From positions 4,160,001 to 4,224,000 of the forward strand of contig OZ245817.1 of the NCBI GenBank assembly GCA_965228475.1: DNA of 64,000 nucleotides, written 5' to 3'. The position numbers were made by a program, and so were the translations under genes. Positions 3,224-15,645 of the stretch are shown piece by piece; position 1 is the stretch's first letter, and every line of letters starts with the position of its first letter. Origin of the DNA: Myxococcota bacterium (GTDB lineage: Bacteria > Myxococcota_A > UBA9160 > JAFDDA01). The notes under the pieces are model-generated. The model saw only the letters and a list, made by a program, of their open reading frames with translations, was not told the origin of the DNA and did no database searches.

Positions 3224-4450
3224 ATGGCCGCACGCAAGAAGAAGACGGTGGCGAAGAAGAAGACCGCCGGCGGGCGCAAGAAGGCGCCCGCGAAGCGCAA
3301 GACGAAGAAGAGCGTCGCCGTCGACATCGCCGCCGTCCGCAAGCGCAACCAGCAGCTCGACAAGCTCGCGATCAAGGGCATCGTGAACGCCGCGAAGGAC
3401 GTGCACGAGCACATCCTGAAGCGGCGCAAGCCGGACCTCTCGTTCCCCGTCCGCTCGCTCGGCAACGTCGAGTACTCGAAGAAGCAGGGCTACTTCTCGA
3501 TCGGCAAACAGAAGAAGGTCCGCACGCTCACCGTGAACACGGTGAAGGGCTTCGCCCAGACGCTGCGCATGATGGGGCTCAGCAAGGAGCTGATCGAGAC
3601 CAACGACTTCGCCACCAAGCGAGACGCCTACTACCAGAGCAAGAACTGGGAGGACGCGCGCTTCGACGAGCAGACCGAGTCCGACTCGGTCATGGACGAC
3701 ATCGAGGCGCTGTTCAGCGTGGACGGCGTCTCCCGCGAGCAGCTCCGCTTCGTGCCGGACGAGCACGGCGGCGCCGTTGCCGGGCAGCTCATGGTGATCG
3801 ACCCGGACCGCGACACGGGCGAGATCGAGCGCATCGACTGCACGCGCTTCGGCTCCGGGGCGTACTCCATCCCGAGCAATGTCGAGCACCTCTCCTTCGA
3901 GACCGATGCCGAGTTCGTGCTCGTGATCGAGACGGGCGGTGTCTTCCAGCGCCTCCAGAGCCACAAGTTCTGGCAGACGAGCAACTGCATCCTCGTCTCC
4001 ATGGCCGGTGTGCCGACGCGCTCGACCCGGCGCTTCGTCCGCAAGCTCTCGGACGAGTGCGACCTGCCGGTCTACGCCTTCGTCGATTGCGACCCCTACG
4101 GGATCAGCAACATCTACCGCACGCTGAAGGTCGGCTCGGGCAACGCGGCCCACCTCTCCCAGTTCTTCTGCGTGCCCCAGGCGCGCTACCTCGGCGTGAC
4201 GCCGCAGGACATCGTCGACTACGAGCTGCCCACCCACCCGCTCCACGACGTCGACATCAAGCGGGCCAAGGACGCCTTGAAGAACGACCCCTTCTTCAAG
4301 ACCCACACCGAGTGGCAGAAGGCCATCAACCAGCTCCTCAAGATGGGCGTCCGCGCCGAGCAGCAGGCCCTGGCCAAGTGGGGGCTCAACTACGTGATCG
4401 AGGAATACCTGCCGCAGAAGCTCGATCAGCGGGCGCGCTTCCTGCCCTGA
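3224..4450 (+). CDS. top6A: DNA topoisomerase VI subunit A (Spo11-like)
   Basis: TKRDAYY catalytic Tyr region, LVIETGG, DCDPYG Toprim, AEQQAL. ATG 3224 follows a GAGG RBS; this is the real part of ORF 812..4450. Confidence 0.97.
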   Translation: MAARKKKTVAKKKTAGGRKKAPAKRKTKKSVAVDIAAVRKRNQQLDKLAIKGIVNAAKDVHEHILKRRKPDLSFPVRSLGNVEYSKKQGYFSIGKQKKVRTLTVNTVKGFAQTLRMMGLSKELIETNDFATKRDAYYQSKNWEDARFDEQTESDSVMDDIEALFSVDGVSREQLRFVPDEHGGAVAGQLMVIDPDRDTGEIERIDCTRFGSGAYSIPSNVEHLSFETDAEFVLVIETGGVFQRLQSHKFWQTSNCILVSMAGVPTRSTRRFVRKLSDECDLPVYAFVDCDPYGISNIYRTLKVGSGNAAHLSQFFCVPQARYLGVTPQDIVDYELPTHPLHDVDIKRAKDALKNDPFFKTHTEWQKAINQLLKMGVRAEQQALAKWGLNYVIEEYLPQKLDQRARFLP

Positions 4451-5907: not shown

Positions 5908-6749
5908 AGATCCTCGTCGTGGGCTCGAACGGCCAGCTCGGGCGCGCTCTCGCAAACGAGCTCCGCGCCCACGAACTCGTCCTGCGGGACCTCCCGGAGC
6001 TCGACGCCGCGGACGAAGCCGCCGTCGCGGCCCTGTTCGAAGCAGAACGCCCCGAGTGGGTGATCAACGCCGCCGCCTACACGGACGTCGACGGCGCCGA
6101 GACCGACGCCGAAGGCGCCGAGCGCGGGAACGTCACGGCGCCGCGGGTGCTGGCCGAGGCGAGCGCGGCGCGGGGCGTTCCGATCGTGCACGTCTCGACC
6201 GACTACGTCTTCGACGGAGAGACCGACCGCCCCTACACCGAGAGCGACGCCCCGAACCCGCAGACCGCCTACGGCCGGACCAAGCTCGCCGGAGAAGATG
6301 CCGTGCGCGCCGCCAACCCGAAGCACTTCGTCGCGCGCACCGCCTGGCTCTACTCGACGGGGGGCCGGAACTTCGCGCTCACCATGCTCGGCGCCGCGAG
6401 CCGCGGGAGCGTCCGCGTCGTCGACGACCAGACCGGGTCGCCGACCTACGCGCCGCACCTCGCCGCGGGCATCGCCCAGCTCCTCGCGCGCGACGACTGG
6501 GGCACCGTCCACCTCGCCAACGCCGGCCAGACCACCTGGTACGGCCTGACCCGCGCGCTCTACGAAGCCTGCGGCGTCGCCTGCGAAGTCGCCCCGTGCA
6601 CGACCGACGAGTTCCCCCGCCCGGCCCCGCGCCCGCGCTACTCTGCCCTCGCATCGAATGCGGAGCCCCCGATCAATCTCCCGAGCTGGGAGGACGGGGT
6701 CCGGGCCTTTGCCGCCGACCGCCTCGCTGCGCGCCGCGATACCCGATAG
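5904..6749 (+). CDS. rmlD: dTDP-4-dehydrorhamnose reductase
   Basis: GSNGQLG, NAAAYTDVDGAE, STDYVFDG, YGRTK, DQTGSPT. GTGA overlap with rmlC. Confidence 0.95.
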   Translation: MKILVVGSNGQLGRALANELRAHELVLRDLPELDAADEAAVAALFEAERPEWVINAAAYTDVDGAETDAEGAERGNVTAPRVLAEASAARGVPIVHVSTDYVFDGETDRPYTESDAPNPQTAYGRTKLAGEDAVRAANPKHFVARTAWLYSTGGRNFALTMLGAASRGSVRVVDDQTGSPTYAPHLAAGIAQLLARDDWGTVHLANAGQTTWYGLTRALYEACGVACEVAPCTTDEFPRPAPRPRYSALASNAEPPINLPSWEDGVRAFAADRLAARRDTR

Positions 6750-8059: not shown

Positions 8060-8217
8060 AAGTCCTCTTCGAGCTCGGCTTCTTCGTCCTGGGTGGGGAG
8101 CCGGGTCACCGTGAAGGGTGCCGTGCAGTACTGGCACACGACGGTGTCGCCGCGCTTCTCGTCGCCGGCGAAGAGCAGGTCCGCGTCGCAGAGCGGACAG
8201 GCGGAATCCTTGGCCAT
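8056..8217 (-). CDS. Small Cys4 zinc-ribbon protein, LysW/rubredoxin-like (53 aa; not in ORF track)
   Basis: MAKDSACPLCDADLLFAGDEKRGDTVVCQYCTAPFTVTRLPTQDEEAELEEDF*. Strong RBS AAGGGAGGGGG upstream; CxxC-17-CxxC followed by an acidic tail. Confidence 0.8.
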   Translation of the reverse strand: MAKDSACPLCDADLLFAGDEKRGDTVVCQYCTAPFTVTRLPTQDEEAELEEDF

Positions 8218-8326
8218 GGGTCACCCCCTCCCTTCGATTTCGGCCGCTTTGCGCCCGGCCTTGAGTGCGAGAACTCACACGGGCGCTCCGGCTCGCGATA
8301 GGATGGGCCCATCCTCAGGAGAACCC

Positions 8327-9421
8327 ATGGCCGAGCCCCAGCCCACCCCCTCCCTCCCCGAAGCGCATCCGAACGGCAGCCAGGTCCAGGCCGCCTTCGA
8401 CGCCGTCTACAACTGGAACTACGAGCCCGAGATCGACGAGCTGCGCACGCTCTACGCGAATGCCCTCGACCGCCAGTGGATCGCCATGCGCGACCTCGAC
8501 TGGAACCGCGAGATCGACAAGAGCGCCTTCGCCGAGACGCGCGTCGGGATGATCCCGGTCCAGGAGACCGACTACTGGCAGACCCTCGACGACGACACGC
8601 GCTGGGAGATCTCGCGGCGGAGCGCGGCGTTCCTGCTCTCGAACTTCCTCCACGGCGAGCAGGGCGCGCTGATGGTCGCGGCCCAGCTCGTGAACGCCGT
8701 CCCCCACATGGACGGCAAGTTCTACGCTTCGACCCAGACGCTCGACGAAGCGCGCCATGTCGAGGTCTTCGCGGCGTACATCAACAAGCTCGACGAGGTG
8801 CAGGAGATCGCGCCGTCCCTGAAGGAGCTCCTCGACGACGTCCTCGCCACGGACGACTGGATGAAGAAGGCCGTCGGGATGCAGGTCGTGACCGAGGGCC
8901 TCGCGCTCTACTCCTTCCGCGACATGCGCAACCAGACGCGCGAGCCCCTGCTGAAGGATCTGCTGACGAACGTCACCCGCGACGAGGCGCGCCACACGGG
9001 CTACGGCATCAAGTACCTGAACGCGATCGTCCCGACCCTCGACGAAGCCACGAAGGCCGAGATCGAGGACTACGCCTTCGAGGCCGCCCGCAAGCTCGTC
9101 GATTCGCGCGGCGGGACGTCCATGCGCGAGTCCGTCTTCCAGATCTGGCGCGAGGCCGGGGTCGACCCGATGGAAGCCTTCGCCGAGATCATGAAGGAGC
9201 GCGAGAAGATCGCGGCGGCGATCCAGGCCCAGGGCGGCCGGCGCGGCCCGATCCGCGGCTTCGTCATCCCGACCCTGCGCGGCATCGGCCTGTTCAGCGA
9301 GCGCATCCAGTCGCACTTCGACGACATGTTCCAGAACAACCTGGGCGCGCTCGCCGGCACGATCGCCGACGACCCGGCGGATCTCCCCGAAGACCTCGAG
9401 GCCTGGGCGCTCGGCGAGTAG
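8327..9421 (+). CDS. Ferritin-like di-iron oxygenase/desaturase family protein
   Basis: HGEQGAL...DEARH...TEGLAL...DEARH, i.e. two E..ExxH pairs. AGGAG RBS before ATG 8327. Confidence 0.85.
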   Translation: MAEPQPTPSLPEAHPNGSQVQAAFDAVYNWNYEPEIDELRTLYANALDRQWIAMRDLDWNREIDKSAFAETRVGMIPVQETDYWQTLDDDTRWEISRRSAAFLLSNFLHGEQGALMVAAQLVNAVPHMDGKFYASTQTLDEARHVEVFAAYINKLDEVQEIAPSLKELLDDVLATDDWMKKAVGMQVVTEGLALYSFRDMRNQTREPLLKDLLTNVTRDEARHTGYGIKYLNAIVPTLDEATKAEIEDYAFEAARKLVDSRGGTSMRESVFQIWREAGVDPMEAFAEIMKEREKIAAAIQAQGGRRGPIRGFVIPTLRGIGLFSERIQSHFDDMFQNNLGALAGTIADDPADLPEDLEAWALGE

Positions 9422-9540: not shown

Positions 9541-10551
9541 CTACTCTTCCGGCTTCGCGGGCGGCGGGGCGAAGTCCACGGTGGCGTGGAAGCCGAGGGT
9601 CGACTGGCCGAAGCCGTCGGGCTCGAGCAGCATGGCTTCGACGCCCTCGTGATCCGCGAGCAGCGGGAAGGCTTCCTCGGGCGGGAGCACCAGCAACGCC
9701 TTGCTCCAGGCTTCGGCCACGGCGCCGCTCGGCGCGACGATCACCGCGCCGGTCTGGCGATCGACCGGCAGGCCCGAACGCGGATCGATCACGTGCCCGA
9801 GGCGCTTGCCGTCGACCACCGCGGACTCCCGGAAGCTCTCGCTCACGGAGACCGAGACGTCCGTCAGGCTGGCGATGCCGGCATAGCCGCCGCGCGGATC
9901 CTTCACGAGCACGCGCCAGACCGGGCCGTCCTCGGGCTCGCCGAGGGCGAGCAGGCTCGACTGGCCGAAGGACAGGAGCGCCCGCTCGATGCCGCGATCC
10001 TTCAGGAGCTCGCCGAGGCGGTCGAGGGTCCAGCCCTTGGCGAAGCCGCCGAGATCGATGGACATGCCGGCCCGCGCGAGCCGAACCTTCTCCTCGTCGA
10101 TCTCGATGCCCTCGAAGCCGGTCTGGGCGCGCGCCGCGGCGAGGGCCTCCTCCGCGGGCCAGACGCCGCTCTCGCCGGCCTGCTTCCAGACCCCGACGAG
10201 CGGGCCGACGGTCGGATCGAAGGCCCCCTGGGTCGCCCGCGCCAGGGCGACGGCGTCTTCCAGGATGCGCGTCACCTCCTCGGGAACCTCGGAGATCTCG
10301 CCGCCCGCGCGCCGGTTCAGCTGCGCGACGGCGGAATCCTCGCTCCAACCCGTAAAGAGCTTCTCGAGCGCGTCGGCCCGGGCGAAGCACGCCTCGAGGG
10401 CCGCGCGCGCCTTCTCCCCGTCCTCGGCAACGACGGTGATCTCGAGGGCGGTCCCCATGGCGGTCCGCCCTTCCCGCACGGTCTCGGCTTCGGCCACCGG
10501 CGCGAGCGCCAGTGCCAGTCCGAGCGCCCACCCCAGGAACCGCGAGATCAT
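9541..10551 (-). CDS. apbE: FAD:protein FMN transferase
   Basis: AMGT, GAFDPTVGPL, IDLGGFAKGW, HVIDPRSG. Signal peptide has no lipobox. Confidence 0.9.
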   Translation of the reverse strand: MISRFLGWALGLALALAPVAEAETVREGRTAMGTALEITVVAEDGEKARAALEACFARADALEKLFTGWSEDSAVAQLNRRAGGEISEVPEEVTRILEDAVALARATQGAFDPTVGPLVGVWKQAGESGVWPAEEALAAARAQTGFEGIEIDEEKVRLARAGMSIDLGGFAKGWTLDRLGELLKDRGIERALLSFGQSSLLALGEPEDGPVWRVLVKDPRGGYAGIASLTDVSVSVSESFRESAVVDGKRLGHVIDPRSGLPVDRQTGAVIVAPSGAVAEAWSKALLVLPPEEAFPLLADHEGVEAMLLEPDGFGQSTLGFHATVDFAPPPAKPEE

Positions 10552-11057
10552 CCGAAGTCCTCCCCGGACATGTAGTTCTCGGACTTCGCCGTGAAGACGG
10601 ACCACAGCGAGATCACGACCAGAACCGCGAGGCTCGATTGTAGCGAGACGAAGCCGAGCACCTTCACGAAGGCCAGGTCCGCGGAGACGAAGCGAACCAG
10701 CCAGCCGCCGGCCTCGTCGACGAGCGCGGAGGCGAAGGGGAGCACGATCAGCCAGAGCTTCCAGCGGTTCGAGATCGGCACGAACAGCATCAGATGCGTC
10801 AGGACCAGAAGGAGCATTCCCATCGCGAACAGATGGAAGTGCGAGACCTCGAGCAGGCCCTGGTAGCTCCGCGGCTGCAGGAACTGCTCCTCGTTGCCCA
10901 GGTAGTAGTGGACTACCGAGCTCGGCCAGAGGCTCATCTTGTTGAAGTAGAGGAGCGCGTTCGTCCACCAGAGGCCGATCACGTAGATCGAGTAGAGCAC
11001 GACGATCGTCTGGAGCAGACGATTGCGGTCCCATTCCCCGGTGACGACGAAGCGCAT
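10548..11057 (-). CDS. Membrane protein (about 4 TM) with HFHLF motif
   Basis: Hydrophobic helices, LLEVSHFHLFAMG and LTHL. Coupled to its neighbours by overlap or a 1-bp gap. Confidence 0.75.
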   Translation of the reverse strand: MRFVVTGEWDRNRLLQTIVVLYSIYVIGLWWTNALLYFNKMSLWPSSVVHYYLGNEEQFLQPRSYQGLLEVSHFHLFAMGMLLLVLTHLMLFVPISNRWKLWLIVLPFASALVDEAGGWLVRFVSADLAFVKVLGFVSLQSSLAVLVVISLWSVFTAKSENYMSGEDFG

Positions 11058-11058
11058 G

Positions 11059-11664
11059 CTACCGCTCTCCCAGGGGTTCATTAGCACCCCCCGCGGCGGG
11101 CGCCTCGTCTTTCACGAGGAGCCGGTGGAGCGCGAGCGCCCGGCGGACGCCCCCCGCGACCGCCCGCGCCGAGAGCGTCGAACCGGCGATGCCGTGGATG
11201 GCGCCCCCGATGCGGGTCTCGTCCTCGAGCCCGCGCGCCTCGAACTGCTCGAGCCAACGCTTCGAGGGCTCGTACTCGGGCGGCTCGTAGAAGGCCAGGA
11301 CCCGAAGGTTCCGAACCTTGCCCTCGGGCGTCATCACCACGAGGAACGCCTCCGGGAGGGTCCGGACGGTGTGGATGTCGATCACCGCGTAGCCGGTGGC
11401 CTGCCCCGCCGCGTCGTAGGCGGTGTAGAGCTTCACGATCTTGCTCTCGAGCTTCGACCGGGCGTCCTGCTCGACGGCATTCGCCTGGGCGGCACTCAGG
11501 ACGTGGGTCTTCTCCTCGACGCGGGCGGCGCCCGGGAAGGCCCACTCGAGCGCCTCCTTCCGCGAGAGATGCACCTTCGCCGTGGCCGGCAGAGCCAGTC
11601 CCACGGCGAAGATCGATCCGAGGAGAAGCGCGCCCCAGGCGCGCAGCGTGTGACTAGAAAGCAA
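11059..11664 (-). CDS. Exported FMN-binding (flavinylated) domain protein
   Basis: Signal peptide, LAFYEPPEY, and IHGIAGSTLS as a variant of the [S/T]GA[S/T] flavinylation motif. Sits upstream of apbE. TTG start is uncertain. Confidence 0.8.
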   Translation of the reverse strand: MLSSHTLRAWGALLLGSIFAVGLALPATAKVHLSRKEALEWAFPGAARVEEKTHVLSAAQANAVEQDARSKLESKIVKLYTAYDAAGQATGYAVIDIHTVRTLPEAFLVVMTPEGKVRNLRVLAFYEPPEYEPSKRWLEQFEARGLEDETRIGGAIHGIAGSTLSARAVAGGVRRALALHRLLVKDEAPAAGGANEPLGER

Positions 11665-12994
11665 GCCCCATTCCCACGGCGACCTCGTCGGGCCGCTCCC
11701 CGGCGTGCGGGTCGAAGTTCCGGTACTCCAGCTTCAGCACCACGTTCGGGTGCGGATAGAACTGGATCCCGGGATTGTAGAGCCAGAACGTACGATTGCG
11801 ATTCGCGATGAAGCCCGTTGGGACCTTGCGCTGGGTGTCGACGTACTCGACCCGGAAGAAGGGCTCGAGGCGCTTGCTGTGGTCCCCGAAGAGCAGCGAC
11901 CAGATGTCGTAGGCGAACTCGACGTAGCCGCCGAGCTGGGTGCCGGCGATCGGGGCGTTCACGCCGGGGACGCGGCCGAGCGAGAGGTTGAAGTCCCGCA
12001 CGTTCGAGAGGTGGGAGTACGCCAGCAGGACGCGGGTGTGGAAGCCACCCCGCTGAAACTGGCCGTGGAACTCGGCGATCATGAGCGCGGACTCGTCGAG
12101 GTCGACGCCGTTCACCTCGAGATCCTGATCGACCTCGCCGTAGAAGAACGAGCCGCCGAGCAGCAGGCCTTCGACGGCGTCCGGGCGCCAATCGAGCCGC
12201 ACCACGCCGGCCCAGTCTTCGGCGAGGGCTCGGTTGCCCTTCTGGCGGCCGCCGCGGATGCCCGCGTCGCTGAAGCGCGAGCCGTTCAGGCTGTTCATAG
12301 CGTAGACGCGGTACTCGAGCGTCTCGCTGAGCCGCCCGAAGATGCCCGCGCCGTTCTCGCGCCAGGTGGTCGGGATGATCGTCTGCTCCGTCACCGGGCG
12401 CTGGACGCCGTAGAAGAACGGCGGCTCGTGGATCTCGTTGACGAAGCCGATCGGCGCGAGCAGCATGCCGCCGCGGAAGTTCAGCTTCTCGTGGAAGAGG
12501 TAGTCGAGCGTCGCGAGCTCGACGGAGACGCTACCGCCACCGCTCACGTTGGTGATGGCGCTCGTGCTCGCGTGCTCGAACTCGATCTCGGTGTTGAAGA
12601 TCAACTTCTCGGTGAACTTGTACCCGAAGTACATGACCATGCGCAGGAAGTCGGCGCGGTCGAGGTCCGTCGAGTCCTTGTCGTCGACGAACATGCGGTA
12701 GTTCGCCTCGGCGTAGCCGCCGATCGAGAGGCCGCGCTCGACGCCGTAGATCTTGCTCGCCGCCGGGCCGAGGCCGTAGACGGAGGTGAGCTCGGGCTCG
12801 TCGGGTACGGCGACCTGATCGCGCAGGCGCGCGAGCTCGTCGATGACGGTGGCGAGGGTGCCTTCGAGCTGTTCGATCCGGTCGTCGCGGGCGCGGATCG
12901 CGTCCGCGTCCTCGCTAGCGGCGAAGGCCAGCGGCGAGAGGGTGATTCCCCAGGCAAGCGCCACGGCTACGGTCAGAGAAGTGGGTCGGGTCAC
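11654..12994 (-). CDS. Outer-membrane porin (OprO/P-like beta-barrel) with N-terminal coiled coil
   Basis: Signal peptide, coiled coil, IGGYAE, FNTEIEFEH, NEIHEPPFF, IIPTTWRE, terminal Phe. Confidence 0.8.
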   Translation of the reverse strand: MTRPTSLTVAVALAWGITLSPLAFAASEDADAIRARDDRIEQLEGTLATVIDELARLRDQVAVPDEPELTSVYGLGPAASKIYGVERGLSIGGYAEANYRMFVDDKDSTDLDRADFLRMVMYFGYKFTEKLIFNTEIEFEHASTSAITNVSGGGSVSVELATLDYLFHEKLNFRGGMLLAPIGFVNEIHEPPFFYGVQRPVTEQTIIPTTWRENGAGIFGRLSETLEYRVYAMNSLNGSRFSDAGIRGGRQKGNRALAEDWAGVVRLDWRPDAVEGLLLGGSFFYGEVDQDLEVNGVDLDESALMIAEFHGQFQRGGFHTRVLLAYSHLSNVRDFNLSLGRVPGVNAPIAGTQLGGYVEFAYDIWSLLFGDHSKRLEPFFRVEYVDTQRKVPTGFIANRNRTFWLYNPGIQFYPHPNVVLKLEYRNFDPHAGERPDEVAVGMGLAF

Positions 12995-13044
12995 GGAGCA
13001 CTCCCGGAACGGGCGCCGGCCTCATGAGCGGCGCGCGCGGGTGG

Positions 13045-13072
13045 GGACTCGGGACTCGGGGTCTCTGGCCTC
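13045..13072 (-). promoter_or_regulatory. Four tandem GAGNCC hexamers in porin leader (candidate Com-like protein binding site)
   Basis: Minus strand GAGGCC-a-GAGACC-cc-GAGTCC-c-GAGTCC at 13067-72, 13060-65, 13052-57 and 13045-50. Function is inferred. Confidence 0.45.
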
Positions 13073-13119
13073 TGCGGTGGACGAGAAGATCGTTCGTGAG
13101 GGTTCGGGCGGCGGGCACG

Positions 13120-13371
13120 CTAGCGCCCCCGCCCGATGGAATGGACGACGCGGGCCGCGGGCCGGCCCGGCGCCAGCGCCGGAGAGGATGTGGCCTCGAC
13201 CCAATCGTTCCCGGCGCTGAAGGGAACGAGCAGGTCGCGCTTGCAGCGCCGGCAGCGGATCTCGACGCCGTTCTCGACGATCCGGGCGAGCAGGCTGCCG
13301 CACTCGCAGCGGCACTGGTCCGTGGCGGGCGCGCGCCGAGACTCACTCGTTTCGGGCTGATTTAGCCCCAT
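13120..13371 (-). CDS. Com-family (Mu Com-like) zinc-finger protein
   Basis: RCECGSLLAR...VEIRCRRCKR matches the Com pattern RC.CG.LLA....I.C.RC. GGAG RBS; first gene downstream of the Fur-boxed promoter. Confidence 0.7.
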   Translation of the reverse strand: MGLNQPETSESRRAPATDQCRCECGSLLARIVENGVEIRCRRCKRDLLVPFSAGNDWVEATSSPALAPGRPAARVVHSIGRGR

Positions 13372-13447
13372 GATTGGACTCCCGGGTGCCTGGGCCGTTC
13401 GAGGCGGCCTCGTTCGGCCCGTTCGAGCGTCGTGCGCTTCAAATGAA

Positions 13448-13466
13448 ATTGAAAATGAAATTCAAT
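13448..13466. promoter_or_regulatory. Fur box
   Basis: ATTGAAAATGAAATTCAAT, a 19-bp imperfect palindrome in an AT-rich patch, like the deltaproteobacterial TGAAAATnATTTTCA Fur motif. A fur gene lies 1.7 kb away. Confidence 0.8.
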
Positions 13467-13477
13467 ATCCGGCGCGC

Positions 13478-13506
13478 AGAGTACGCCCGCTGCCCGGGGG
13501 TGTCAA
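13478..13506 (-). promoter_or_regulatory. Sigma70-type promoter for the com-porin operon
   Basis: TTGACA (13506-13501), 17 bp spacer, TACTCT (13483-13478). The Fur box is just downstream. Confidence 0.7.
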
Positions 13507-13526
13507 TGGCGGGGGAGGAGATGGGG

Positions 13527-15203
13527 CTAGTTCGTGGCGGGCGGTGCCGGTGCGGGCGGCTTCGGCGCCTGGAGCGGGAGGGCCCGGCCGTCGAGGACCT
13601 TCGGCGGGGGGATCCCGAGATGCTCGGCGAGGGTCGGGGCGAGGTCGACCGTGGCGACCTCCCCGGAGATCCGGCCCTTCTCGATGCCCGGCCCGTAGAA
13701 GACGAGCGGGACGTTGCGGTCGGCCGGGTACGGCGAGCCGTGGTTCGCGCCGGTCGGGTAGCTCGTATAGAGACAGGTGGGCTCGGCCTGGATCTCGAAG
13801 TCGCCGCCGCGCTCCGGGTCCCAGGAGTTCGCGTAGAGCGTGGCGTAGGGCTCGGGCCCGCTCCCCGCCTGGATCTCCGCGGCCGTCCAGACGCGGCGGA
13901 TCCCGGGCTGCTTCTCCAGGTAGCTCTTGGCCTCGGCAACGATCTCGTCGACCGCGACCTGCCGCTCGGCGGCGAAGGATCGGTTCACCGTGAAGCGGTA
14001 GCCCGAGCGCTGGGCCCACTCCCCGTCCGCGTGGGCGAAGTTCTTCTCGAGATGGGCGTTGAGCCCCGCCGCCAGGGCCCGGGAATCGGCGCGCCCGCCG
14101 GGGATCGGACACTTGCCCCGGCCCGTCTCGTGCAGCCACTCCGGGATGGGCGTCACACCGTGGTCCGAGGTGACCGCGATCCAGAGCTTGTCCTGGTCGA
14201 CCTCGTCCTCGACGTCGTCGAGGAAGTCCTCGAGCCAGGCATCGAGCCGCTGCAGCGCATCCAGGGCTTCGTGGCTCTCGGGGCCGTGGAGGTGGCCCAC
14301 GTAGTCGAAGCTCGAGAGGGAGACGGCCAGCAGGTCGAGGTGCCCGCGCCGCTGACCGAGGCGCTCGCCCTCGATCAGCTCCTTGGCGAAGCGCAGGACG
14401 ACCTCGTCGCCCCAGGGCGACCAGGTGAAGCGCTCCGCGTCGTCCGCCTCGTCTTCGCCGAGCAGGAGCGGGTGCGGGCTCCCGCGGCCGAAGCGGTCGG
14501 ACTCGAGCGCGTAGTCGTCGCGACGCCCGCTCGGCAGCGGCGCCGTCGCGTGCGTCCACATGCGCGGAGCCTCGTCGAAGAAGTCGCGCCGGTTGAAGCG
14601 CTTCACCCACTCCGGGAGGTCGCGCCGGTAGTAGCGGCTGGTCGTGAAGCCCGCGCCCTCGGCGCTGCGGAACCAGAACGCCCCTGTCGCGCGCCGGCCG
14701 CCCAGCATGATGGCCGCGCGGTCCTTGCTCGAGACCGCGTAGACCTTCGAACCCGGGTCCGCGCCGCGCATCCAGTCGCCGAGGGTCTCGACGCGCAGCC
14801 AGCGCGGCGAGCGCCCGCCGTCGCCGTGGAGCGTCGCGGTCGCGGGGTTCGGGTCTTCGACGCAGTAGCGCGTCTCCCCGGACTCCCGCTGGACGAAGAC
14901 GTTGCCGGGGATGCCGGCCGGGCCGGCGTGGCGCCCGCTCAGGATGACCGCGTGCCCGGGGCAGGTCTCGGTGTGCGCGTGGCCCACGGCGGCGTCCGTG
15001 AAGAAGCGGCCCTCGCGCGCCAGCCAGCCGAGCCCCCCCGGCAGCTCCGGGTCGAGCTCATCCGCGCGCAGCTGATCGATCACGAACACGAGCACGAGGC
15101 CCTCGACGCTCCCTTCCGGGGCATCGGCGGGGACCGCCATCGGCAGGCCCGAAGAGCAGCCGAGGACGGTGGCAGCCAGCAATGCGAGAGACCGCTTCGT
15201 CAC
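13527..15203 (-). CDS. Alkaline phosphatase family protein (PafA-like)
   Basis: VIDQLR, HTETCPGH (Thr nucleophile), SSKDRAAI, DYVGH, TSDHG, NHGSPY. Lipoprotein-like signal VLG-C. Confidence 0.88.
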   Translation of the reverse strand: MTKRSLALLAATVLGCSSGLPMAVPADAPEGSVEGLVLVFVIDQLRADELDPELPGGLGWLAREGRFFTDAAVGHAHTETCPGHAVILSGRHAGPAGIPGNVFVQRESGETRYCVEDPNPATATLHGDGGRSPRWLRVETLGDWMRGADPGSKVYAVSSKDRAAIMLGGRRATGAFWFRSAEGAGFTTSRYYRRDLPEWVKRFNRRDFFDEAPRMWTHATAPLPSGRRDDYALESDRFGRGSPHPLLLGEDEADDAERFTWSPWGDEVVLRFAKELIEGERLGQRRGHLDLLAVSLSSFDYVGHLHGPESHEALDALQRLDAWLEDFLDDVEDEVDQDKLWIAVTSDHGVTPIPEWLHETGRGKCPIPGGRADSRALAAGLNAHLEKNFAHADGEWAQRSGYRFTVNRSFAAERQVAVDEIVAEAKSYLEKQPGIRRVWTAAEIQAGSGPEPYATLYANSWDPERGGDFEIQAEPTCLYTSYPTGANHGSPYPADRNVPLVFYGPGIEKGRISGEVATVDLAPTLAEHLGIPPPKVLDGRALPLQAPKPPAPAPPATN

Positions 15204-15213
15204 CCGACCCTCG

Positions 15214-15645
15214 TCAGTCTTTGCCGCAATCCGAGCAGTGACCGTAGAGTTCGTGGCGGTGACGCAGGATGCGGAAGCCGTAGCGCTCCGCGATCCGGTT
15301 CTGCGTGGACTCGATCATCGCGCACTCGAACTCGATGATCTTTCCGCAGCGGGTGCAGACGAGGTGATCGTGATGCTCCTGCTCGATCTCGTAGCGCGTC
15401 ACGCCGTCTTCGAAGTTGCGCTCGATGGCGAGGCCTGCGTCGCACAGGAGTTTCAGCGTGCGGTAGACCGTCGTGAAGCCGATGTTCGGGTGGTCGTCGC
15501 GAACCTTCTGGAAGAGCTCGTCGCTCGTGATGTGGCCCTTGGCGTTCAGGAACACCTCGAGGATCGCGTCGCGCTGCTTCGTCTGCTTGAGGTTGTGGTC
15601 CTCGAGATAGCGCGCGAGTGCCTGTCGTTCGACCTCGTGGGACAT
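15214..15645 (-). CDS. fur: Ferric uptake regulator
   Basis: TKQRDAIL, TTVYRTLKLL, HHDHLVCTRCG, C-terminal CxxC. Confidence 0.92.
   Translation of the reverse strand: MSHEVERQALARYLEDHNLKQTKQRDAILEVFLNAKGHITSDELFQKVRDDHPNIGFTTVYRTLKLLCDAGLAIERNFEDGVTRYEIEQEHHDHLVCTRCGKIIEFECAMIESTQNRIAERYGFRILRHRHELYGHCSDCGKD

Follow-up and report, generated by a model that had tools for sequence, protein, structure and literature searches.

Why would a bacterial chromosome keep a gene resembling com of phage Mu directly in front of a porin gene? The question is raised by a 64,000-nucleotide (nt) stretch from a Myxococcota bacterium (contig OZ245817.1, positions 4,160,001 to 4,224,000; hereafter the window, whose own numbering is used), which encodes on its minus strand an 83-amino-acid (aa) protein with four cysteines, referred to here as com-like. 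A reading made from the sequence alone had listed a sigma-70 promoter, a Fur box, the 83-aa Cys4 gene, a 125-nt leader and a porin gene with a GTG start, in that order; all are present where it had placed them, and every item that it listed was found in the sequence. No phage genes were found near the com-like gene in the window. Comparison with related loci suggests that the 83-aa protein is probably the protein component of an on-switch for iron-uptake genes, shared by several bacterial phyla, and that its site would be a conserved RNA element in the leader.

The RNA element and the hairpins beside it

The features between the com-like gene and the porin-like gene, and the two genes themselves, are as follows.

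13120..13371 (−): com-like gene, 83 aa, ATG start (open reading frame, ORF; zinc ribbon CxC...CxxC formed by C22, C24, C40 and C43, with a variable tail)
12995..13119 (−): leader of 125 nt, from the com-like stop codon to the porin start (sequence and ORF list)
13043..13074 (−): conserved RNA element of four GNRNCC units, GGCCAG - hairpin - CCGAGUCC (covariance model R1, 38.8 bits)
13053..13063 (−): mini-hairpin P2, GAC / loop CCCGA / GUC (covariation over 66 distinct instances)
13043..13050 (−): last unit, GAGUCCCC, 5′ arm of a hairpin sequestering the Shine-Dalgarno (SD) sequence (folds); alternatively, its GUC pairs with GGC 13070-13068 as helix P1
13009..13038 (−): inner hairpin of the leader (minimum free energy, MFE, fold); relatives have an inner hairpin of unrelated sequence in the same place
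12996..13005 (−): GGGAGUGCUC, SD sequence and 3′ arm pairing with GAGUCCCC (folds), next to the GTG at 12994
11654..12994 (−): porin-like outer-membrane beta-barrel gene, 446 aa, GTG start at 12994 (ORF; signal peptide, N-terminal coiled coil)

Recurring in the spacer after com-like genes is a consensus of about 28 nt, GCGGCCAGNGGUCNNGAAYCCAGAGCCC, of which the window variant is GAGGCCAGAGACCCCGAGUCCCGAGUCC. Its left part is GGCCAG and its right part C(A/C)GAG(C/U)CC; between them stands a variable 3-bp stem whose loop is CNNGA. Trained on 54 instances, and with strong copies defined as those of at least 27.9 bits, a covariance model detects 66 strong copies in 62 of the 80 loci fetched around com-like relatives, the set to which all counts out of 80 refer; the conservation in related loci that the sequence-only reading had called for is borne out. 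All 66 copies are on the com strand, the best score on the opposite strand being 21 bits, and in 54 of the 62 loci a copy starts −40 to +300 nt from the end of the com match (median 65.5 nt). The copy at 13043..13074 is the sole strong one in the 5.0-Mb genome, which has two marginal ones at 21.8 bits.

The middle stem covaries. Over the 66 instances, the second pair of P2 is GC in 47, AU in 9, GU in 9 and UG in 1, and the third is UA in 41, CG in 17 and UG in 6. Both sides are changed in 29 cells, as against 8.8 ± 2.2 in shuffles; the observed score was reached by none of 500 shuffles, and sliding the P2 partner abolishes pairing. The 17 matches lying outside the initial regular expression keep P2 in 97.9% of cells, in an alignment made with the model and biased in its favour. 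In isolation, the 32-nt element folds into the P1/P2 form (−4.4 kcal/mol). The G-U pairs, together with the strict strand bias, argue for an element of RNA rather than of DNA. No Rfam 15 family for it was found in the window region or in eight loci, the below-threshold matches being unrelated (Twister-sister, 19.3 bits; COG2908, 20.7 bits).

In the window the element had appeared as four tandem GAGNCC hexamers (minus strand, 13072-67, 13065-60, 13057-52 and 13050-45). Single hexamers of this kind are not enriched (341 in the window, 342 ± 18.6 in shuffles), and the two lone ones, a fifth hexamer in the leader (13023-18) and a GAGTCC over the com-like ribosome-binding site (13381-76), therefore carry no weight; the sequence-only reading had listed both. 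The cluster itself is real and exceptional: the 5.0-Mb genome has only three places with at least four same-strand hexamers within 30 nt, and five mononucleotide shuffles produced none. It is better described as one element with a covarying mini-hairpin than as a tandem array; other lineages have GCGGCC and GCGGUC as their first two units. The other two clusters in the genome (620204 and 1458790) were ruled out as copies of the element, being a gene end and a coding Glu-Pro repeat.

Abutting the element is a hairpin of one of two types, each of which would be inhibitory. In 22 of the 66 copies, the MFE hairpin begins in the last unit, has GAGCCC(GG) as its 5′ arm and carries a U-run after its 3′ arm, and so has the form of an intrinsic terminator; it separates the element from the ribosome-binding site that follows, and most copies of this type come from low-GC records of Binatia, Nitrospirota and the like. 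The high-GC porin loci are without the U-run and have instead an inner hairpin, then GGAG and then (G)GCUCG, placed directly before the AUG. When folding is confined to the part of the leader that runs from the last unit up to the start codon, 27 of 33 leaders of this SD type have at least four of the six arm nucleotides paired with the 18 nt preceding the start; the mean fraction with shuffled arms is 0.42. For the full window leader, the SD-closed (OFF) and SD-open (ON) forms are nearly isoenergetic (−25.0 and −24.6 kcal/mol), and for a terminator-type leader (L042) the closed form lies at −30.7 and the open form at −18.5 kcal/mol. The self-complementary GGAG-TG-CTCC noticed earlier at the porin ribosome-binding site is present, but is better read as a 3′ arm pairing with the last GAGUCC unit. 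The proposal of a translational switch agrees with the SD hairpin of the window and of Myxococcota-like loci, whereas many lineages appear to use transcription termination.

One of the marginal copies in the genome, at 4986492-4986523 on the minus strand (L082:1501-1532; 21.8 bits, E 0.027 genome-wide), reads GCGAGGCCAGCGGCCCCGCCCCCAGAACCC. It is intergenic, about 35 nt before the GGAGCC..ATG of a small basic ORF (MKKAKPLPHRNRGK...), and could be a degenerate target or a chance match.

The Com-like protein and its linkage to the element

A word-indexed search found 50 relatives of the window protein at E ≤ 0.01, four of which are named ‘phage FluMu protein Com’ by the Joint Genome Institute (JGI); 721 cluster representatives were found at E ≤ 0.001, and 332 loci in species genomes. 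Common to the 50 homologues is the invariant core RCxCGSLLAR...E.xCRRCKR. The window protein itself matches PHROG 13819 (gpCom) weakly (E 0.01, 16.8 bits, residues 20-49), and the same family matches 47 of the 50 relatives at E ≤ 0.1 (best 6.1e-5), with PHROG 6417 (‘translational regulator’) matching 39. Aligned by hhalign with the Com sequence of the annotated Mu record, the 50-member profile gives a probability of 94% and an E value of 1.4e-7 over 31 columns, covering the zinc finger (Com residues 4-36). The description of the protein as Com-like finds support in these matches. Its architecture is that of the Com family, an N-terminal four-cysteine ribbon, with a predicted zinc site whose first knuckle is one residue shorter, followed by a variable tail. 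The gene order agrees with that family too, the com-like gene lying just ahead of its presumed target in the same orientation; com is followed by the porin gene in 38 of the 80 loci.

The AF2 model of the protein is of low confidence (pLDDT 65.9 overall), with a three-strand core (residues 27-50) at pLDDT 77-89 and a tail below 65. Foldseek comparison of this model with BFVD gave no match at E ≤ 0.001, which is uninformative because the ribbon is so small. A tblastn search of the window protein against 50,697 phage records returned only matches at E ≥ 5, and the family profile found only weak zinc-ribbon look-alikes among PDB sequences (E 0.019 and 0.32). From the Pfam, PHROG and hhalign results, the window protein would be a distant member of the Com family or belong to a sister family.

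The Com protein of Mu, 62 aa long, consists of a CCCC zinc finger and a disordered tail; it is an activator and binds a hairpin beside the translation-inhibition structure of mom (available text of PMC6483171). Selection of RNA ligands (systematic evolution of ligands by exponential enrichment, SELEX) with the Com finger of Haemophilus sputorum yielded 5′-GAG(N)2CC-3′, mostly present twice, on both sides of a variable stem of 3-4 nt, and an accessible GA is crucial for recognition (same text). This motif matches the GAG..CC-type target that the sequence-only reading had named for Com. It is also resembled by the RNA described here, in which a CNNGA-loop hairpin flanked by GAG/CC segments abuts the SD hairpin or terminator.

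The likeness to Mu com/mom (PF10122, Zn_ribbon_Com; PHROG 13819) extends to both partners: a small Cys4 ribbon with a variable tail, encoded directly upstream of its target on the same transcript, and a short RNA hairpin, bearing GAG/CC motifs and a GA that is accessible, beside another hairpin that hides the SD sequence and start codon (PMC6483171, available text), binding being predicted in the present case. Unlike Mu com/mom, the window system is chromosomal, has no prophage around it, has a Fur-box promoter and precedes iron-uptake genes rather than a DNA-modification gene. The two differ further in the first knuckle, CxC here and CxxC in Mu, in the element's own conserved sequence (GGCCAG ... 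CMGAGCCC), and in the apparent use by many lineages of the window family of an intrinsic terminator as output, with 1-4 target copies per genome. Another use of such genes by host genomes outside mom is known in Pseudomonas, where com-like genes precede about 90% of llpA genes (for lectin-like bacteriocins) and likewise lie just upstream of the presumed target; their role is unexplored according to the review describing them (PMC6240691, available text). Those genes differ from the window family in matching PF10122 directly and in belonging to bacteriocin/tailocin clusters, and the available text describes no RNA element, terminator or iron link for them.

The protein and the RNA occur together. 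Among 151 genomes taken evenly from the phylum of the window (cut-offs E ≤ 1e-3 for the element and E ≤ 1e-9 for com), the element was found in 13, com in 15 and both in 11; in all 11 the element follows closely behind com, in the same orientation. Five other genomes hold 1-4 copies each, clustered within a few kilobases of com.

No element is detectable within 4 kb at some com-like loci (L055 and L058, on Sorangium cellulosum chromosomes, and L009, L011, L031, L037, L043, L044, L051, L060 and L076). Paralogues of this kind may recognise a different RNA or play another part.

Promoter and putative target genes

Preceding the com-like gene is a promoter with a Fur-box-like palindrome, and following the porin-like gene are three further genes of the same operon.

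15214..15645 (−): fur-family regulator gene (Pfam FUR, E 3.7e-36; NCBIfam Fur models)
13527..15203 (−): PafA-like alkaline phosphatase gene (NCBIfam E 3.2e-88, under the equivalog cut-off)
13501..13506 (−): −35 hexamer TTGACA (sequence; related loci keep TTGACA-N17-TAnnnT ahead of com)
13478..13483 (−): −10 hexamer TACTCT, 17-nt spacer from the −35 hexamer (sequence; 3/6 consensus match)
~13438..13468 (−): Fur-box-like AT-rich palindrome, ATTGAATTTCATTTTCAATTTCA (sequence; lies after the −10 hexamer)
11059..11664 (−): flavin mononucleotide (FMN)-binding, RnfG-like protein (Pfam FMN_bind, E 3e-4; NCBIfam rnfG, E 3e-5; syntenic in relatives)
10548..11087 (−): 179-aa membrane protein, Aq_1264_TM-like (PF27139 at 0.96 in Atlas clusters; syntenic in relatives)
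9541..10440 (−): ApbE flavin transferase, start codon approximate (Pfam ApbE, E 1.8e-60)

Of the 33 related loci compared, most have the same promoter arrangement ahead of com: TTGACA-N17-TAnnnT and then (A)ATTGAAAATGATTTTCAATTTCA. The latter sequence is a 7-1-7 Fur-type palindrome, common to relatives from several phyla in the same layout as in the window. At the same 17-nt spacing, the −10 hexamer of relatives reads TACTCT (L050) or TAGTCT (L004, L041, L046 and L061), and one locus (L062) has a classical GATAATGATAAT-type Fur box upstream of com. Some copies of the element carry such a promoter of their own directly in front. A strict scan of 12900-13600 for sigma-70 promoters and for terminators found none of either; the promoter was missed because its −10 hexamer matches only three of six positions. 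Both in the window and in relatives the palindrome comes after the −10 hexamer, a placement expected of a member of the Fur regulon, and fur adjoins com in 22 of the 80 loci. We infer that the com-like promoter would be under Fur control.

Separating fur from the com promoter in the window and in its closest relative (L001) is the PafA-like phosphatase gene; in most other loci fur directly abuts com.

By their annotation, the genes behind the element are iron-uptake genes. An operon of a porin-like homologue, FMN_bind, membrane and ApbE genes follows com in 38 of the 80 loci; elsewhere the element precedes ExbB, ExbD, TonB, HemP, TonB-dependent receptor, cupredoxin-like, Haem_bd (haem-binding) and CCP_MauG-like genes. 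DUF6662 is also found behind it together with FMN_bind and ApbE, standing in for the porin in other lineages. The porin-like protein of the window has only a weak Pfam match (Autotransporter beta-domain, E 9.5e-7), and the Atlas clusters closest to it carry the name ‘Porin family protein’ (0.99), 19% of their members having Porin_O_P; the Pfam scan of the 179-aa membrane protein gave no match. The porin-like / RnfG-like / Aq_1264_TM / ApbE operon (9541-12994) looks like an undescribed flavin-dependent module for iron uptake or iron reduction.

In two loci the gene behind the element is itself a com paralogue (element at L029:3804-3835 before com at 3938-4174; element at L045:6080-6111 before the paralogue at 6208-6378), which, with the hairpin present, suggests autoregulation; no full element lies upstream of com in the window.

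Further genes stand beside these loci. Behind the fourth copy of the element in one genome (G151, L100:1501-1532, minus strand of the locus) and its terminator is a ferritin-like gene (MGTKGREIVGMDVDQLLKLLNMAFADEWLAYYQYW...), so that the regulon may include iron storage or handling besides uptake. A Cys/His-rich protein of about 70 aa (MYGIKS..WSVSLCNCS..HFHYGNVVLHI..) is in four loci the first gene after element and terminator, directly before exbB-exbD-tonB (L057:4366-4578, L066:4345-4557, L067:4407-4619 and L075:7622-7834); the copy scanned, L057:4366-4578, has no Pfam family. In the window, a gene for an AurF-like / R2-like di-iron oxygenase family protein (8093-9421, plus strand; Pfam AurF, E 2.1e-15) converges on the end of the operon.

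Mechanism and alternatives

Taken together, a Fur-controlled activator or antiterminator of the Com type acting on iron-uptake genes is the reading that we favour, with somewhat better than even confidence. The 83-aa protein would be a chromosomal zinc-ribbon RNA-binding protein of the Mu Com family, transcribed from a Fur-repressed promoter, and its cognate site would be the element of about 30 nt at 13074-13043. By default, GAGUCCCC would pair with GGGAGUGCUC and bury the SD sequence beside the porin-like GTG start. Under iron limitation, Fur repression would be lifted, the com-like ORF translated and the element bound by its product. Binding would probably stabilise the P1/P2 stem-loop and keep the last unit out of the inhibitory hairpin, freeing the SD sequence so that translation of the porin / FMN-binding / membrane / ApbE operon could begin. 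In lower-GC lineages the last unit supplies the 5′ arm of an intrinsic terminator instead, and the protein would there bring about antitermination. The overall logic would be that of a feed-forward gate requiring both Fur and Com. What the sequences show is the gene order, the homology to Com, the conservation, the genomic linkage, the covariation of the RNA and the geometry of terminator and SD hairpin; from these we infer the binding of protein to RNA, activation as the sign of its effect and control by Fur.

Several observations weigh against this reading. For the window protein, Pfam and NCBIfam gave no Com match (PF10122 included) even at E ≤ 10, and PF10122 is reached by only 3 of the 50 relatives at E ≤ 1. 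The CxC of the first zinc knuckle (RCECGS, residues 22-24), in place of the CxxC of Mu Com, is invariant in the family and forces a one-residue gap in the hhalign alignment. The outer 3-bp helix P1, in which GGC pairs with G[C/U]C from the last unit, can always form but hardly varies (GC 62, AU 2, GU 1, other 1), which leaves its support weak. For the window taken by itself, the shuffled-arm control stands at 0.54, making its structure indistinguishable from chance, and the leader fold is not significant (z = 0.71). Two genomes of the 151 have a weak element (27-29 bits) and no com match, and no strong element was found in 18 of the 80 com loci or in 4 of the 15 com-bearing genomes. The loci are moreover related by descent, and the counts and the association therefore overstate independence, but the adjacency is constant. 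A test of duplex energy between the last unit and the pre-start region across loci, made with crude start calls, placed 13 of 33 within −3 to +12 nt, which is not significant; it was rejected as uninformative because shuffled arms did equally well in most loci.

Conservation and a position in front of terminators are also what a riboswitch would display, and the element could be a protein-independent cis-regulatory RNA (a small riboswitch, a metal or temperature sensor, or the target of a small RNA, sRNA), with the com-like gene only a co-regulated neighbour. The genomes in which one partner occurs alone, 2 of 13 with the element and 4 of 15 with com, are in keeping with this. With about 28 nt and two 3-bp stems, however, the element is too small for known ligand pockets and does not qualify as a riboswitch; no Rfam family matched it, it adjoins com in all 11 genomes having both, its layout fits the Com SELEX target (PMC6483171, available text), and the two element-only genomes had weak matches of 27-29 bits. 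We regard a protein-independent RNA as unlikely. If the same protein bound the element but repressed, by stabilising the terminator or SD hairpin or by blocking the ribosome, in negative feedback on iron uptake, linkage and homology would be equally well explained, and the computed evidence is silent on the sign of the effect. Against such a repressor, which we hold to be rather unlikely, the hairpins are strong unaided (terminators with U-runs; −25 kcal/mol in the window), which already makes OFF the default; a protein sitting on the site would occupy the 5′ arm of the hairpin and should compete with hairpin formation; and Mu Com is an activator (PMC6483171, available text). Since the inhibitory hairpins are stable alone and the conserved site includes their 5′ arm, an activator is the economical reading.

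Proteins of this kind carry the NCBI name ‘Com family DNA-binding transcriptional regulator’, and short repeats in tandem can serve as operators when they follow a promoter; repeats do lie near promoters in some loci. That the repeats are a DNA operator for the zinc-ribbon protein is nevertheless very improbable, as all 66 strong matches are strand-specific relative to the downstream gene, G-U and U-G, pairings confined to RNA, are tolerated in the stem, and the last unit belongs to terminator stems. Least credible, to the point that we all but set it aside, is a chance cluster of hexamers in a GC-rich spacer: single hexamers do occur at chance density and the window fold has z = 0.71, yet only three such clusters exist in the 5.0-Mb genome, none of five shuffles produced one, and the element is kept in 62 of 80 loci across phyla.

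The comparisons support, at the level of sequence, the view of the favoured system as a Com/mom-type switch that is chromosomal and linked to iron and that would act as an antiterminator in many lineages. In the latter respect it would be like BglG/LicT-RAT, HutP and TRAP-type attenuation, where a protein at a leader site overlapping the 5′ arm of the terminator decides read-through; unlike it, those proteins have folds unrelated to the Com zinc ribbon. The terms ‘zinc’ and ‘phage Mu’ are absent from the available text of a 2025 review of RNA-binding antiterminators (PMC12591593), so that a zinc-ribbon antiterminator would extend the list given there, which is short. No description of the element or of Com-like control of iron genes was found in the literature covered, which excludes subscription-only papers and supplements.

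With an element of 32 nt and a protein of 55-85 aa, the hypothesis is directly testable, and the two together could be used as a compact synthetic RNA switch. For the study of Mu Com it would provide hundreds of natural protein/RNA pairs with covariation from which to read the recognition code (loop GA, 3-bp stem, flanking GAG/CC). More tentatively, and with a rather low probability, Com-family ribbons may be more than accessories of phages, namely widespread and so far undescribed bacterial RNA-binding antiterminators and translational activators. With Fur they would form a feed-forward gate with two keys, controlling the iron-acquisition operons of Myxococcota, Binatia, Nitrospirota and other phyla, and the Cys4 site could read zinc or iron status as a second input. 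Iron uptake is textbook territory of Fur and sRNAs. If the favoured reading is true, a conserved leader switch operated by a phage-type zinc ribbon would lie atop Fur in several poorly studied phyla, and would constitute a new class of regulator in iron homeostasis.

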